A stretch of 64,000 bases of DNA from the sequence record OQ708376.1; one strand, given 5' to 3'. Position 1 is the stretch's first letter. Each line of letters starts with the position of its first letter. Position numbers and translations under genes: made by a program. This document shows, piece by piece, positions 1-64,000 of this stretch. The notes beneath the pieces are model-generated. The model searched no databases. It saw only the letters and a program-made list of their open reading frames with translations, and was not told where the DNA came from. This DNA is from Escherichia phage vB_EcoM_CRJP21.

Positions 1-3
1 ATA

Positions 4-267
4 ATGGCACTTCGTATCTATGAGTGCCGATCCAATAGATACAATTTTTACCAGTACAGATTTGATAAAGAAGAATTTGATAGCATCAAAATGCTAAAGA
101 ATTTATGTAACAATAAAAAGAATATGCATATATCAGAATTTGTTGCTTTGTATTTTTATTTAAAAAGTTCATTGTATATGAACACGATGCAAAGATTCGA
201 TACTAGAATTAATGTATTCACCGATAAAGAATTTTATATATACGATAAATTCTTAGATAAGGTTTAA
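4..267 (+). CDS. hypothetical protein (87 aa)
   Basis: ATG ORF in track, AT-rich codon usage, same strand as downstream gene run. Confidence 0.4.
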   Translation: MALRIYECRSNRYNFYQYRFDKEEFDSIKMLKNLCNNKKNMHISEFVALYFYLKSSLYMNTMQRFDTRINVFTDKEFYIYDKFLDKV

Positions 268-268
268 T

Positions 269-766
269 ATGACAACTGTTTATATTGATAAACGATTAAA
301 TTTATTGATTACCGATTCTAGAGTTACGTCAACTATACCACGAAACTTATTTGGTTTTTTCCCACTAAGACCAAAATATCAATATGGAGTTGTTAATCAA
401 AAAACTTTATATGTACATGACCGTTTATTCAGTGCTAGTGGGTCAGTAAGTGAAATTGATAAAGTACTGGATTGGTTAATTAATAAAGTACCAGTTATAC
501 CTGACAGAAAGTTAAGTTGCCATTGTGTGCTTCTTTCTAAAGATTATGTTATTCATATGATTTTAACTAAAGGAAAGTTTATTAAAAAACTTGAATATCT
601 ACATGAAGACTACACTTTCTTTATGGGAAGTGGTGGAGAATACATGGTAGATGCTGCTATTCATGAAGAACATACAACTTTATATGATAAAGTGTTTAGT
701 ACTTTCATGGATGTGCATAACCATGATTGCTTCACAGATGATAATATTAATGTATATCGATTTTGA
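269..766 (+). CDS. hypothetical protein (165 aa)
   Basis: ORF starts 1 nt after upstream stop (TAA-T-ATG); same-strand operon-like packing. Confidence 0.5.
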   Translation: MTTVYIDKRLNLLITDSRVTSTIPRNLFGFFPLRPKYQYGVVNQKTLYVHDRLFSASGSVSEIDKVLDWLINKVPVIPDRKLSCHCVLLSKDYVIHMILTKGKFIKKLEYLHEDYTFFMGSGGEYMVDAAIHEEHTTLYDKVFSTFMDVHNHDCFTDDNINVYRF

Positions 767-787
767 TTTCGTCATTAGGAGATGTAA

Positions 788-1753
788 GTGAAAAAGCTTG
801 ATTTAAATACAATTGCCGAAGAAGTTCTGGATGAATGTTTTTCTAATGAAGAAGTCAACACACTAGAAGCCTTAGATTTCGTTGAAGATAAAGATGAAAA
901 TGAAGGTAAAGTACAAAGCAGTTTCAAATATAATATTACACTTAAGCGACCACCAAATGTTTCCAATGAAGATCTAATTCGTGATATTCAAGCTGGTATC
1001 AATGTAAAGAAAAACACTGAACTGTTAGTTCGTTACAATTATGGACTTATTATTGATGTAGCAAGTAAATGTACTTGTTATATCCCATTTGAAGATAAGA
1101 TTTCATATGGTGTTGAGGGGTTCATGAGAGCACTAAAAACCTTTGATCTTAATAAGAATGTGAAGTTCATTACCTATGCTTCTTCTAGTATTTACATGAC
1201 AGTTTATAACGAAAGTTCTGACGCTAACTATATGGTACACTTCCCACGTTATATGAGTGTTCATAAGATCAAAGTAAAAAGATTCTGTCAGGAATATATG
1301 CGTAAACATGGTGTTCGCCCAACTCCTGAAATAATCTCAGAGGGTACTGGGATTGAGATTCAGCATGTTAATAACTGTTTGTTATTTCAAAGCGAATACA
1401 CTTCTCTGGATGCACCATTAGACGGTGTTACCGATGGTACACTAGGTGACATTATTCATTCACCTGCTTCTGATTTTAACCTCAATGTTGATAGTATTCG
1501 TGCACCTTTACGTTATGCTATCAATGAACTGACTAACGAATTGAGTACTAAAGAACGTGAGATTATCCAGCGTGTTCATGGTCTAGGTGAATATGAACCT
1601 GAAACGCTTCGTGAGATTGCTGATAATGGTTTTGTTGATGATAATGGAAAATATGTTAAATCCCGTTCATCAATACACCGAAAGTACAGTGAAGCTATGC
1701 AAAAGCTTAAGAAGTTAGTACTTGCAAAAGGGTACGAATACGAAGATTTCTAA
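788..1753 (+). CDS. sigma-70 family RNA polymerase sigma factor (regions 2, 3 and 4 recognisable)
   Basis: GTG start 7 nt after AGGAG; region 2-like YGVEGFMRALKTFDLNKNVKFITYA, region 3-like KHGVRPTPEIISEGTGIE, region 4-like LSTKEREIIQRVHGLGEYEPETLREIA; motif-level match from memory, no search run. Confidence 0.65.
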   Translation: MKKLDLNTIAEEVLDECFSNEEVNTLEALDFVEDKDENEGKVQSSFKYNITLKRPPNVSNEDLIRDIQAGINVKKNTELLVRYNYGLIIDVASKCTCYIPFEDKISYGVEGFMRALKTFDLNKNVKFITYASSSIYMTVYNESSDANYMVHFPRYMSVHKIKVKRFCQEYMRKHGVRPTPEIISEGTGIEIQHVNNCLLFQSEYTSLDAPLDGVTDGTLGDIIHSPASDFNLNVDSIRAPLRYAINELTNELSTKEREIIQRVHGLGEYEPETLREIADNGFVDDNGKYVKSRSSIHRKYSEAMQKLKKLVLAKGYEYEDF

Positions 1754-1760
1754 AGAACAA

Positions 1761-1788
1761 GGGTTGGCTTATGCCAACCTTTTTTTTA
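1761..1788 (+). terminator. intrinsic terminator (GGGTTGGC-TTAT-GCCAACC + T8)
   Basis: GC stem-loop followed by T-run directly after sigma gene stop. Confidence 0.7.
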
Positions 1789-2404
1789 TGGGATGAAGTA
1801 AAAGTTTGTGATATAATTATCTTGTACAATTCTGTTGGCATGATATTCATGTACCTGATCCACTCGAAAACGTAGAGGGCAGTTGAGCAGTCCGACAGTG
1901 CGAACAGCAAAAGAAACCCGTTAGATGTGGGCATAGTTTGAACCCCTCACGGCAATGCGGCTGTATAAAGAACCACGTTAGGATAGCTGGTGGTTCCTTG
2001 ATAGACATATAAGGATAACACCTTACGAATTATCTAAGGGAGAGTTATCGAATTTTGTACAGGAAAGTTGCGTCCAAAATTTGAGTACTCACATTAAGTA
2101 TTTGATTGCATAGATACTTAATGAAGATACACTATGTTTAAAAGTGTAGACCGTCATATGAAACTGAAGTAGAGAGAAACAGGATGACCCGCTTTCGCAC
2201 TCGTTATGAGTAATCTTCAATGCAATAGCTCTGATACCATCAGCGTCAAATTTCCCTCCTTGTGGGGGGAAGAAAAATCCCTTCCTCAAATCCCGTCAAT
2301 ATTAAAAGTCCTTGACAGTTATTAATCATTCGCGTAGAATACGTAGTATTAGAAGCGAACAGACATCTCGAAGAGATGGATGATTAACCATTAAGGAATA
2401 TCAA

Positions 2405-2614
2405 ATGAATTCAGTAATCTTTTTAGTAGTCGCTTTCTCTGTTAATTCCGGTGTACAAATAACCCCAATGAATTCCATGAATCAATGCATAGCAGTACGT
2501 GATAGTACATACGAACAAGTAAACAAAGATATTTGGATTACAGTTAGTAAAGAACAAATGTGGTGTTACAATAGTAATACTAACACAAAGCTTATTGTAG
2601 GACAAACTCAATGA
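2405..2614 (+). CDS. hypothetical small protein with N-terminal hydrophobic segment
   Basis: ORF after AGGAAT RBS-like; downstream of TTGACA-N17-TAGAAT promoter at about 2322-2350. Confidence 0.45.
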   Translation: MNSVIFLVVAFSVNSGVQITPMNSMNQCIAVRDSTYEQVNKDIWITVSKEQMWCYNSNTNTKLIVGQTQ

Positions 2615-2841
2615 GTTATGGCGTTCGTTTTGAGATTCGTTCTATTGTCATCAATGCAGAGAAACAAGTATCGTTGGATGGTGATATACGTGAAATTTAT
2701 CTATCATGTATCCGTGCGAAATCTGAAGCAGATGCCTTAGTACAAATGTATAGTTTTAACTTTTCAAATGGATTCTATTTGGTACGAGTTATTGAAGTGA
2801 AAAAAGTACTTATTGGTTGTAGCATAGAAGGATTAATGTAA
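2611..2841 (+). CDS. hypothetical protein (76 aa)
   Basis: ATGA start/stop overlap with upstream ORF. Confidence 0.45.
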   Translation: MSYGVRFEIRSIVINAEKQVSLDGDIREIYLSCIRAKSEADALVQMYSFNFSNGFYLVRVIEVKKVLIGCSIEGLM

Positions 2842-62664: not shown

Positions 62665-62695
62665 TTGACAAAGTATATCAGTACTGCAATAATGT
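62665..62695 (+). promoter_or_regulatory. promoter TTGACA-N17-GCAATAAT
   Basis: hexamers read; -10 weaker. Confidence 0.45.
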
Positions 62696-62746
62696 ATCTC
62701 GTAGGGCGGCAATGGTGCGACGGCCCACAAAGTTAGGAGATTCAAA

Positions 62747-63079
62747 ATGAGTACTTCAATCGCTATCGTTAAAGCTTTCATCCGTACCAATGTTTCATCT
62801 GTATTCATCGACGGTCTGGATCGGGAAGTAGAATACTCAATCATTATCGCACAGACTGCAAACGGTGCTCGGTATATCCTTAATGATAGTGAAGCAAATC
62901 ACTACTACTTCACTAAAGCTACTGGCTTTAAACGCATCGATGCTGACGTAGTATACACTAAGATGAATAAGCTGGTAGACAAGATTAACGCGAAAGGTAC
63001 TATCGATTTACAGTACTGGACCGAAACCGATCCAGAATATGGATCTCACCGCTACCTGAATCCAGGTATTAAAATGTAA
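62747..63079 (+). CDS. hypothetical protein (110 aa)
   Basis: TTAGGAGAT RBS. Confidence 0.55.
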   Translation: MSTSIAIVKAFIRTNVSSVFIDGLDREVEYSIIIAQTANGARYILNDSEANHYYFTKATGFKRIDADVVYTKMNKLVDKINAKGTIDLQYWTETDPEYGSHRYLNPGIKM

Positions 63080-63085
63080 AAAGTA

Positions 63086-63148
63086 CTTGCATAGTACTTA
63101 GAATCAAGTATAATGTTTTACATAGAGAGGGGGAAATGGTTCTCCCTC
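63086..63148 (+). promoter_or_regulatory. promoter TTGCAT..TATAAT + 5' stem-loop GAGGGGGAA-ATGG-TTCTCCCTC
   Basis: cassette architecture. Confidence 0.6.
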
Positions 63149-63168
63149 CTAAATTAAGGAGTTTTATC

Positions 63169-63570
63169 ATGACCTTCTCAATCAATTCCTTCGCTGACGT
63201 TTTAGTACTGGCTCGGACTTTCGGTAAAGATGCACTGGAGTACGCTGTAAGTAATGGTACTATCCAACCGGAACAGTGCCGCATCATTGGAAACTGCAAA
63301 CGTTGGGCGGTATCCAATACTATTGCACTGGAAAACTTCCACGATGGCAACAATGAATATTCTGTTGATGTAGTATTCGAAGCCGTTGATCTCGGCGGTA
63401 TCTATAATACTAACCTGAATGATGTGCGTATCGTTCGCACGGGGTTCGGTGCTTATGATGTATCTATTCGTGAAGCTATGAACACCGGATACATTAGCAA
63501 GGACTTACTTGCTCACATCATGCAGCTGTGTACGGAACGTAACGAAGCACGCACTATCTTAGGACTGTAA
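63169..63570 (+). CDS. hypothetical protein (133 aa)
   Basis: ORF track 63136-63570; ATG 63169 after AAGGAG. Confidence 0.55.
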   Translation: MTFSINSFADVLVLARTFGKDALEYAVSNGTIQPEQCRIIGNCKRWAVSNTIALENFHDGNNEYSVDVVFEAVDLGGIYNTNLNDVRIVRTGFGAYDVSIREAMNTGYISKDLLAHIMQLCTERNEARTILGL

Positions 63571-63638
63571 GCGTTACACATCACCAAACATCATAGGCCG
63601 CCTTGTAGCGGCCTTAACTATATCAGGAGGGCATACAT

Positions 63639-63848
63639 ATGTTCTATACAGTATACAGCGTTCTAGGTACTATTGCAGGCGTACATGATAACGTCAATGA
63701 TGCTATGCGTACAGTACTGCAACAGGTTCCACTAAAGCCTAAGACCATTAAGCAGATGACAGCACGACTAACCAGGGCGACCGATGGCGTGGAAGTATGG
63801 CAGGACTACGGGGATACACAGATAATCGTTAGCGTAACGAAGGATTAA
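63639..63848 (+). CDS. hypothetical protein (69 aa)
   Basis: CAGGAGGG RBS. Confidence 0.5.
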   Translation: MFYTVYSVLGTIAGVHDNVNDAMRTVLQQVPLKPKTIKQMTARLTRATDGVEVWQDYGDTQIIVSVTKD

Positions 63849-64000
63849 TGCGTAAAGGGATCTAGTACTGATTCAGAAAAAAGTCAAGGCGTTTTTAAAA
63901 TTATGCGTTAAAAAAATGCATAGGTAATCCCTTGACTTTTTTGAAATAAAAGGGATTGGACTATGGCAAAATGCGTAGGGGGCTAAAGGGCGGGTAACCT

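Follow-up and report, generated by a model that had tools for sequence, protein, structure and literature searches.

AGTACT is the commonest hexamer in the DNA of Escherichia phage vB_EcoM_CRJP21 studied here, a stretch of 64,000 nucleotides (record OQ708376.1) whose full length we call the window. This palindrome occurs there 280 times, about 13-fold more often than chance predicts, and ranks first in count among all 4,096 hexamers. The enrichment is under selection, acts through the density of sites rather than their positions, carries symmetric flanks, and is found in the RaK2-like enterobacterial jumbo phages and in an unrelated family of small temperate phages. We tentatively propose that AGTACT (extended form, TTnCAGTACTGnAA) serves as an identity tag of the density type, which would be read on duplex DNA by a dimeric, putatively phage-encoded protein. 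We lean toward this reading while judging it somewhat more apt to fail than to hold.

The AGTACT excess and its sequence context

By megablast, the closest relatives of the window belong to the genus Asteriusvirus, jumbo myoviruses of E. coli. Positions 1-24087 are 98.6% identical to phage 121Q (KM507819, 88480-110841), and PBECO4, slurp01, Sharanji, and others are about as near. The G+C content of the window is 35.4%, and the expected number of AGTACT copies is 21.7, 21.3, 46.8, and 103 under Markov models of order 0, 1, 2, and 3, respectively; the observed count is still 2.7 times that of the order-3 model, which already contains most of the AGTACT word. An initial annotation, made from the sequence alone, had described the word as over-represented throughout the window, and the counts bear this out in each half: 95 copies at 1-32000 versus 10.9 (order 0) to 33.5 (order 3) expected, and 185 copies at 32001-64000 versus 10.6 to 72.

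The favored context is T(-4/-3), n, C(-1), AGTACT, G(+1), n, A. C stands at -1 in 43% and G at +1 in 47% of window sites, and G(-1) and C(+1) are avoided. The form CAGTACTG reaches 59 copies versus 0.7 expected, and its flanks are nearly independent of one another, as an order-6 model already yields 57. The same annotation had also held that phages usually deplete palindromic hexamers, which is true of this one: about 30 G+C-containing palindromic hexamers have zero copies in the window. Those missing, at 2-12 expected copies each, include GGTACC, CGTACG, CTGCAG, CCATGG, GGATCC, GCATGC, and TGGCCA, and GATC stands at 0.64 of expectation. This phage thus does practice ordinary restriction-site avoidance, and AGTACT is the exception.

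Selection acts on the DNA of genes as well as between them

Genes were called by strand-restricted open reading frame (ORF) heuristics, which gave 139 ORFs and 82% coding DNA. Wholly coding sites number 191 of the 280 (3.6 per kb), and 87 sites are non-coding (7.5 per kb). The ORF set holds 192 copies, compared with 54±6 after within-gene synonymous shuffling and 24±5 after codon permutation. The ratio of observed to expected copies in coding DNA, which would lie near 1 if composition and codon usage accounted for the word, is therefore 3.6 and 8, respectively, next to the 2.7 of the order-3 model. Coding copies in frames 0, 1, and 2 number 82, 38, and 72, and all three frames are enriched. 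The excess over synonymous shuffles and the enrichment in every frame indicate selection on DNA, not on protein. Wherever the encoded peptide allows the word (Ser-Thr, x-Val-Leu, or [K/Q/E]-Tyr-x), AGTACT is realized at 50-59% of the synonymous opportunities. The pressure extends into the protein sequences themselves, since the dipeptides Ser-Thr and Val-Leu are 1.6-1.7 times over-represented and Thr-Ser and Leu-Val are not.

Could the word have no function at all, as a by-product of codon or dipeptide bias, of avoidance of other words, or of biased mutation or short-patch repair? AGT, ACT, and GTA are indeed preferred codons for Ser, Thr, and Val. However, the 3.6-fold excess is measured against shuffles that preserve codon frequencies, the excess over codon permutation is 8-fold, and the enrichment of non-coding DNA equals or exceeds that of coding DNA; these observations rule out a codon or dipeptide artifact. 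A sink of the short-patch-repair type would deplete specific neighbors of the word. No marked depletion is seen among the nine one-mismatch neighbor pairs of AGTACT, of which one stands at 0.5 times expectation and the other eight at 1.0-2.3 times, and we reject such a drive as well. Given, in addition, that sites are conserved above controls of the same composition and that the same word and flanks arose in an unrelated phage family (both described below), we find an origin without function scarcely credible.

Distribution among phages and in the host

Most relatives were sampled as pieces of 20-50 kb, and the host baseline is a single 50-kb sample of E. coli K-12. AGTACT is about 8- to 13-fold in excess in every RaK2-like ("group 2.2") enterobacterial jumbo genus sampled. 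The counts of AGTACT, found and expected, are as follows.

121Q: 179 found, 17 expected
RaK2: 143 found, 16.6 expected
CBB: 199 found, 16.7 expected
Serratia phage BF: 173 found, 16.9 expected
XbC2: 189 found, 16.5 expected
ph0011: 129 found, 17 expected
Kaldavass (20 kb): 56 found, 6.4 expected (8.8-fold)
EJP2: 77 found, 6.7 expected
PA5oct, a distant Pseudomonas relative: 1 found, 8.4 expected
Atu_ph07: 1 found, 8.4 expected
Vibrio phage D482: 0 found, 7.3 expected
phi92, a low-G+C coliphage, 100001-148000 (48 kb): 0 found, 16 expected
E. coli K-12 (50 kb): 3 found, 11.6 expected

The complete Asteriusvirus genome EC22.5-2 (349 kb) contains AGTACT 908 times, 7.7-fold more than expected, and here, too, no hexamer is commoner. 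Along this genome, the count varies from 11 to 69 per 10 kb with its maximum in the early region; the early region of the window (45531-64000) is the counterpart of this peak of 56-69 sites per 10 kb. The fraction of opportunities realized is 35-69% in every 25-kb segment, those of lowest density included, and 35-43% in the late structural regions. It is 45-67% in RaK2, CBB, BF, and XbC2, whereas the genomes without the excess realize 0-2% (E. coli 2%, phi92 and PA5oct 0%). The enriched jumbo genomes carry an AGTACT (ScaI-type) site every 230-380 bp, and their density of 2.6-4.4 per kb stands against about 0.06 per kb in the 50-kb host sample, a contrast of roughly 40- to 70-fold. In phi92, the same word is under strong selection of the opposite sign, and its zero count hints at AGTACT-specific restriction circulating in these hosts. 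We found no description of AGTACT or GTAC enrichment in RaK2-like phages in the literature searched.

A second enriched family

IMG/VR was scanned for closely spaced pairs of CAGTACTG and then, with the full set of matches, for a three-site pattern. Strong enrichment (3-6 per kb, 10- to 20-fold) appeared in two identifiable groups only, RaK2-like contigs and a family of small phages; a few further, unassigned loci are moderately enriched. The small-phage family is represented at many IMG/VR loci by contigs of about 25-35 kb with a G+C content of 0.40-0.43. Its genes encode a serine recombinase, a lambda-type large terminase, a tape-measure protein, a 1,299-residue tail protein, a T4-type lysozyme, and a SegE-like GIY-YIG endonuclease. 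Relatives are prophages in Phytobacter diazotrophicus DSM 17806 and Leclercia sp. 29361, and AGTACT sites crowd the low-G+C prophage DNA but are few in the Leclercia host flank. The family realizes 47-57% of its opportunities, and its flanks match those of the jumbo phages, with C(-1) at 54-59%, G(-1) at 7-12%, and T(-3/-4) at about 42% of sites. These phages make up a previously uncultured family of temperate siphoviruses of Enterobacteriaceae, low in G+C and about 31-35 kb long; megablast of a 13-kb piece gave no match in the phage collection.

How are the two families related? We compared them by tblastn and with 147 small-phage family profiles against one full Asteriusvirus genome and pieces of six other jumbo genomes. 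The only genes in common were those for the lysozyme (47% identity), an HNH/AP2-like endonuclease (in CBB only), and a small lipoprotein (in EJP2 only). Exchange of the lysozyme and the HNH-type endonuclease shows that both families meet in the same cells.

A genome with some 900 ScaI-type sites needs some means of tolerating restriction enzymes specific for AGTACT. RaK2-like phages possess genes for several DNA methyltransferases and are resistant to many restriction enzymes (PMC3622015; PMC5259590). AGTACT might be a target of covalent modification (methylation or hypermodification) or of virion nicks, with enrichment raising the protected share of the genome. Against this stands a comparison of native and amplified DNA by nanopore sequencing, in which the Erwinia phages Kaldavass and Hallingskeid were modified only at GATC, CCWGG, and, in Kaldavass, TGCAT, and in which nicks were seen only in an unrelated Pseudomonas phage (PMC11780129). 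AGTACT is absent from that list of modified motifs, and at 56 copies in 20 kb of Kaldavass a modification signal should have stood out there; this evidence is indirect and comes from one study of another genus, not Asteriusvirus. There is also no methyltransferase among the small-phage ORFs scanned. We consider a modification or nicking mark, which the initial annotation had listed among the candidate functions, very unlikely.

Density rather than position

Distances between neighboring sites are nearly exponential (Poisson-like), with a coefficient of variation of 0.97, and about 1,250 sites in seven genomes reveal no helical or other periodicity, which rules out phased arrays. Within the genus, individual sites are nonetheless retained: in comparison with ph0011 (86% identity), 60 of 87 sites (69%) are intact, versus 46% both for hexamers in general and for those matched in composition (P=1.3e-5). 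Retention above control hexamers indicates that individual sites are under purifying selection. Across genera, the picture is one of turnover. In orthologues of 25-80% protein identity, 8 of the 16 window sites whose counterpart peptide is compatible with the word are AGTACT there, compared with a background realization of 53 of 100 and with 6 of 15 where the window's own opportunity is unused. Because conservation across genera equals the background rate of usage, the pressure is on density, not position, and we reject a position-specific function within genes; each lineage fills about half of its opportunities independently.

In sum, the excess is genome-wide, coding and non-coding, present in all frames, and independent of position, as expected of a density-type genomic tag. 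Taken together, the near-saturation of opportunities, the position independence, and the contrast with the host indicate that the number of sites per genome matters. The initial annotation had argued that enrichment of a palindrome implies a function. That argument survives the codon and amino acid controls and gains from the reshaped dipeptides, the conservation of sites, the presence of the trait in every RaK2-like genus tested, and its recurrence in an unrelated family. Among the functions then suggested, a binding site is the best reading.

The same pattern would suit a start or processing signal used during infection, such as a preferred primase or replication-restart site, a site of transient nicking that serves recombination-dependent replication or strand discrimination, or a topoisomerase II cleavage site. 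Cleavage of the form A^GTAC^T would leave a 4-base stagger, and a 350-kb genome would gain from one such site every few hundred bases. RaK2-like phages encode a T4-like replisome and a type II topoisomerase (PMC5259590). Enrichment that is driven by density and independent of position, on both strands, is expected of a signal needed everywhere, and GATC in E. coli, at about one per 208 bp in the sample, has a spacing similar to the 230-380 bp per AGTACT site. Yet the small phages carry the tag with no replication genes among the non-structural ORFs scanned, and known primases read trinucleotides and need no enrichment. Nor were nicks reported in the virion DNA of Kaldavass and Hallingskeid (PMC11780129). 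On balance, a processing signal seems quite unlikely.

What might read AGTACT?

The dyad symmetry of the word and of its flanks (C at -1, G at +1, T at -3/-4, and avoidance of G at -1) points to recognition by a homodimer on duplex DNA. We posit that a dimeric, sequence-specific protein, most likely encoded by the RaK2-like jumbo phages themselves, binds this short dyad-symmetric site, and that selection acts on how many sites a genome has and not on where they lie. Given the contrast in density between phage and host, a single infecting genome with its roughly 900 sites would out-compete the whole host chromosome for the reader, so that the reader's activity (for example, in protection, transcription, or replication) would be concentrated on phage DNA. 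The small temperate phages would either carry a reader with matching specificity or imitate the tag of jumbo phages that infect the same cells. A phage-encoded reader fits the boundary of the trait, because the Pseudomonas relative lacks it. It also fits the total avoidance of the word by other coliphages. We extend the proposal with more reserve to both families together, the lytic 350-kb jumbo phages and the small temperate ones: that they write the same self mark, (C)AGTACT(G), at roughly half of the positions open to it, that a putative reader senses its density and so distinguishes viral from host DNA, and that the small phages share the reader or mimic the mark, and thereby withstand co-infection or profit from it, is an idea we regard as doubtful.

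Several observations weigh against a phage-encoded reader of this kind. A Pfam scan of 113 window ORFs gave no helix-turn-helix (HTH) or ribbon-helix-helix (RHH) protein apart from the sigma factor and a DksA/TraR zinc finger, and a PHROGs scan of the same ORFs gave no HTH or RHH candidate. The tblastn and profile searches described above revealed no DNA-binding family common to the small phages and the jumbo phages, and Pfam gave no HTH or RHH candidate among 10 small-phage ORFs, although sequence profiles may miss a small, fast-evolving reader. A specificity that is shared when no gene is shared points rather to a reader encoded by the host. At one site every 230-380 bp, a protein that does not spread would cover less than 10% of the DNA, leaving simple coating without an explanation. 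In addition, the host density that underlies the contrast comes from a single 50-kb sample, and the placement of AGTACT in promoters, described below, is not conserved outside Asteriusvirus.

If the reader were instead a DNA-binding protein or enzyme conserved among Enterobacterales that recognizes (C)AGTACT(G), both phage families could exploit it, for instance, for protection, replication, or interference with the cell cycle, and hosts and most other coliphages would avoid the word because binding is harmful or because of ScaI-type restriction. Two unrelated families of Enterobacteriaceae phages with the same motif and flanks but no detectable DNA-binding gene in common speak for this alternative. 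It is also in keeping with the scarcity of AGTACT in E. coli (3 versus 11.6 expected), its absence from phi92 (0 versus 16), and the fact that the enriched jumbo genera all infect Enterobacterales while the Pseudomonas relative PA5oct is not enriched. However, a universal host factor leaves the complete avoidance by other low-G+C coliphages unexplained, and a full-text literature search for CAGTACTG gave no candidate protein. Among E. coli proteins, only SlmA is known to us to have AGTACT in its consensus, and SlmA can be rejected (see below). Half-site resemblances to LexA, TrpR, Cra, MetJ, and RcnR were also considered, and none of these is known to fit the arrangement. We hold a host-encoded reader to be unlikely. 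A third option, in which the small phages imitate the tag of the jumbo phages, would also reconcile the evidence. The two families demonstrably exchange genes.

SlmA deserves closer attention. Its sites (GTGAGTACTCAC), which like the Noc sites serve nucleoid occlusion, are palindromes with an AGTACT core and are scattered over a chromosome. Moreover, E. coli infected with Sharanji filaments and bulges before lysis, with DNA throughout the cell and no phage nucleus (PMC11895373). Hijacking of SlmA is thereby suggested, but the flanks speak against it. The SlmA site is a 12-bp palindrome, GTRAGY/RCTYAC, in which G, T, a purine, A, and G are needed at positions 1-5 (PMC3020112). At the equivalent of position 3, the phage sites have C in 45% and G in 8% of cases, positions 1-2 show no preference for G-T, and the window contains zero matches to GTnAGTACTnAC or GTnAGnnCTnAC. 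We reject SlmA hijack on this flank specificity and for want of a full site.

Promoters, operators, and terminators in the window

The placements of AGTACT in regulatory DNA are best followed on the layout of the window.

1 to about 28.4 kb, plus strand: plus-strand genes (ORF calls)
788-1753, within the plus-strand block: phage sigma-70-family factor
20865-21380, within the plus-strand block: denV
22385-24034, plus strand: AGTACT-poor gene, 1 site in 1,650 nt, G+C 24%
28.4-39.4 kb, minus strand: array of RCC1-repeat paralogues
39535-43585: about 18 tandem paralogous genes of 59-77 codons (ORF calls)
43591-45530: near-wholly non-coding stretch of about 1.9 kb (the "hub")
45531-64000, plus strand: early-type region, in which every short gene has a sigma-70-like promoter of its own

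The initial annotation had placed AGTACT just upstream of the -10 box in many promoters. This holds: CAGTACTGTATAAT occurs in 5 copies, and AGTACT lies one base upstream of TATAAT in 12 of 50 sigma-70-like promoters. Three arrangements can be distinguished, here by example.

60693-60720, plus strand: class A promoter, TTGACA-N9-AGTACT-G-TATAAT, with AGTACT at about -19 to -14 (the exact offset of the 12 promoters)
45958-45990, plus strand: class B promoter as read from the sequence, an A-tract, AGTACTTGCAA, N16, and TATAAT
48255-48287, plus strand: two-site promoter, AGTACT at 48255 and 48275 (20 bp apart), then TATAAT

In class B, AGTACT abuts or overlaps the -35 element; some 13 promoters of this class lie between 45 and 63 kb. 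The two-site layout is repeated at 49040/49060, and several promoters have two sites 20-24 bp apart. The early region as a whole has the highest AGTACT density: its non-coding DNA reaches 11.0 per kb and its coding DNA 4.3.

The operator-like palindromes that had been described are likewise present, extended to 10-14 bp, with TCAGTACTGA found 14 times, TTCAGTACTGAA 6 times, and ATTCAGTACTGAAT once, clustered in the non-coding DNA at 43.6-45.5 kb. The hub alone has 19 AGTACT sites (9.8 per kb), mostly of the extended form (T)TCAGTACTGA(A), and we predict that any reader protein would bind these most tightly. So too with the terminator stems reported for the RCC1 array: seven GCCAGTAC-N3/4-GTACTGGC hairpins follow the RCC1 paralogues on the minus strand, each with a T-run behind it. 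Tandem gene duplication produced these copies.

45382-45395, in the hub: 14-bp perfect palindrome ATTCAGTACTGAAT
29610-29628, 30886-30904, 32138-32156, 33360-33378, minus strand: intrinsic-terminator-like hairpins, one after each RCC1-repeat paralogue
34613-34632, 35877-35895, 37087-37105, minus strand: terminator-like hairpins, continued

Is AGTACT, then, primarily a promoter or operator element that times expression, its coding copies being incidental? The 12 of 50 promoters with a fixed offset, the roughly 13 copies at -35, and the 11 sites per kb in early non-coding DNA would suggest so. However, the evidence largely refutes this as the primary cause: 191 of the 280 sites are coding with three frames enriched, fixed offsets occur in only about 25 promoters, and late structural regions still realize 35-43% of their opportunities. 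In BF, XbC2, and Kaldavass, 0 of 34, 0 of 23, and 0 of 10 promoter-like sites have AGTACT within 50 nt upstream of the -10 box, in genomes that are about 9- to 11-fold enriched. As a primary role, regulation of promoters is highly improbable. The placements in promoters, operators, and terminators are real and specific to Asteriusvirus, but they are not the cause of the excess, because the promoters of equally enriched relatives lack them and because most sites are coding and not conserved in position across genera beyond the background rate.

Under the identity-tag reading, Asteriusvirus would use the tag additionally at fixed spots in early sigma-70 promoters and in the hub, where it would act as an operator. 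Because AGTACT in these promoters overlaps contacts of RNA polymerase, binding would most simply mean repression, shutting off early transcription.

Comparison with known systems

Several dispersed DNA words offer partial analogies. Chi (GCTGGTGG), read by RecBCD in E. coli, is likewise a short word, about 10-fold over-represented in coding and non-coding DNA, whose effect depends on density and which marks DNA as self to a DNA-processing machine. Chi, though, is asymmetric, read on single-stranded DNA, biased in orientation, and the host's own, whereas AGTACT is palindromic, depleted in the host sample, and the phage's. A Chi-like hotspot is ruled out, as AGTACT is its own reverse complement with symmetric flanks and not an asymmetric, strand-biased word.

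The Chi octamer itself also occurs in the window, with 11 copies on the plus strand and 2 on the minus strand versus about 0.23 expected per strand.

Plus strand: 1986, 18561, 44438, 50521, 54346, 55808, 57076, 59426, 60831, 62408, 62631
Minus strand: 44426, 50459

Nine of the 11 plus-strand copies lie in the early region, and the full EC22.5-2 genome has 27 versus about 2.5 expected. This suggests mimicry of host Chi against RecBCD, at what is possibly the leading end of the genome. With genuine Chi present, AGTACT is no Chi substitute for RecBCD.

Uptake sequences (USS of Pasteurellaceae and DUS of Neisseria) come close in other respects: they occur genome-wide at about 1 per kb, inside genes and in all frames, shape peptide composition, and often form terminator stems as inverted pairs. 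They differ in being asymmetric words of 9-12 bp in competent bacteria that are kept by uptake bias, and a phage has no uptake step. The stoperators of cluster A mycobacteriophages, bound by the L5 gp71 repressor, are similarly dispersed genome-wide and in promoters, and here, too, there is a temperate family. But stoperators are asymmetric 13-bp sites, about 30 per genome, mostly intergenic and oriented with transcription; AGTACT is an unoriented palindromic hexamer that is coding in two-thirds of the window copies and numbers 900 or more per genome (908 in 349 kb), and stoperator-type sites are ruled out on these grounds.

In T-even phages, hydroxymethylcytosine, together with Alc and endonucleases that act on host DNA, provides a chromosome-wide property that separates phage from host DNA. 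That mark is chemical; an AGTACT mark would be written in the sequence itself. Finally, restriction-site avoidance concerns the same class of words, about 30 of which the window avoids and one of which, AGTACT, phi92 avoids, but in the window the sign for AGTACT is reversed to an approximately 13-fold enrichment.

Other features of the window

The peak of coding AGTACT density, 6.9 per kb, is the stretch of about 18 short paralogues at 39535-43585, whose products start with M-x-K-E-(F/Y)-Y, end with L-(I/L)-(F/Y)-R-(Y/F), and contain no recognized domain. At the other extreme, the AGTACT-poor gene at 22385-24034 has a counterpart in 121Q annotated as an endonuclease, and it is probably a mobile gene that arrived recently and has not yet acquired the signature. 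The "DNA condensation" annotation of the RCC1 proteins was set aside as a clue to the reader, since we judge the name to derive from eukaryotic RCC1 and not from evidence of DNA binding.

The hub also contains, at 44627-44760, about 16 head-to-tail units of 8 bp (CTAGACGG, CTAAACGG, CTGGATGG), an iteron-like array that may be a replication origin or a protein-loading site. In the gap 3' of the sigma-factor gene lies a non-coding element of about 250 nt (approximately 1870-2120) with 70-81% nucleotide identity in CBB, BF, Kaldavass, XbC2, and ph0011, next to flanking proteins of about 35-45%. RNAalifold gives it 42 pairs, 15 with compensatory double changes; it has no Rfam match (a scan of the whole window with Rfam returned zero), and we consider it a candidate for a new structured RNA of RaK2-like phages. 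Lastly, two near-identical AAAGGGTTGACTTCGGTCAGCCCTTTTTGCTATAAT cassettes at 20797-20835 and 22083-22120 flank denV and adjacent genes. Each consists of a stem-loop with a -35 element within the stem, followed by a -10 element, and phages of Vibrio, Aeromonas, Yersinia, Erwinia, and Serratia have matches of 35-60 bp with an identity of 89-100%. We take these cassettes to resemble the promoter-early stem-loop mobile cassettes of T4-type phages.

Implications for jumbo phage biology

A single palindrome has been driven to near-saturation here, constraining codon choice and amino acid sequence across 350 kb. That this pressure operates in at least four genera and in an unrelated family points to an undescribed step of DNA recognition in infection, in a large group of phages, the RaK2-like jumbo phages, that is used therapeutically. 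If the reader exists, it would provide a handle on how jumbo phages that form no nucleus tell their own DNA from that of the host. The realized fraction of AGTACT would then serve as a marker of members of the group and of recent gene acquisitions, and the small phages would offer a testable case of tag mimicry between co-infecting viruses. A self mark written by both families, if true, would be a viral counterpart of Chi and uptake sequences and a sequence-based alternative to base modification.

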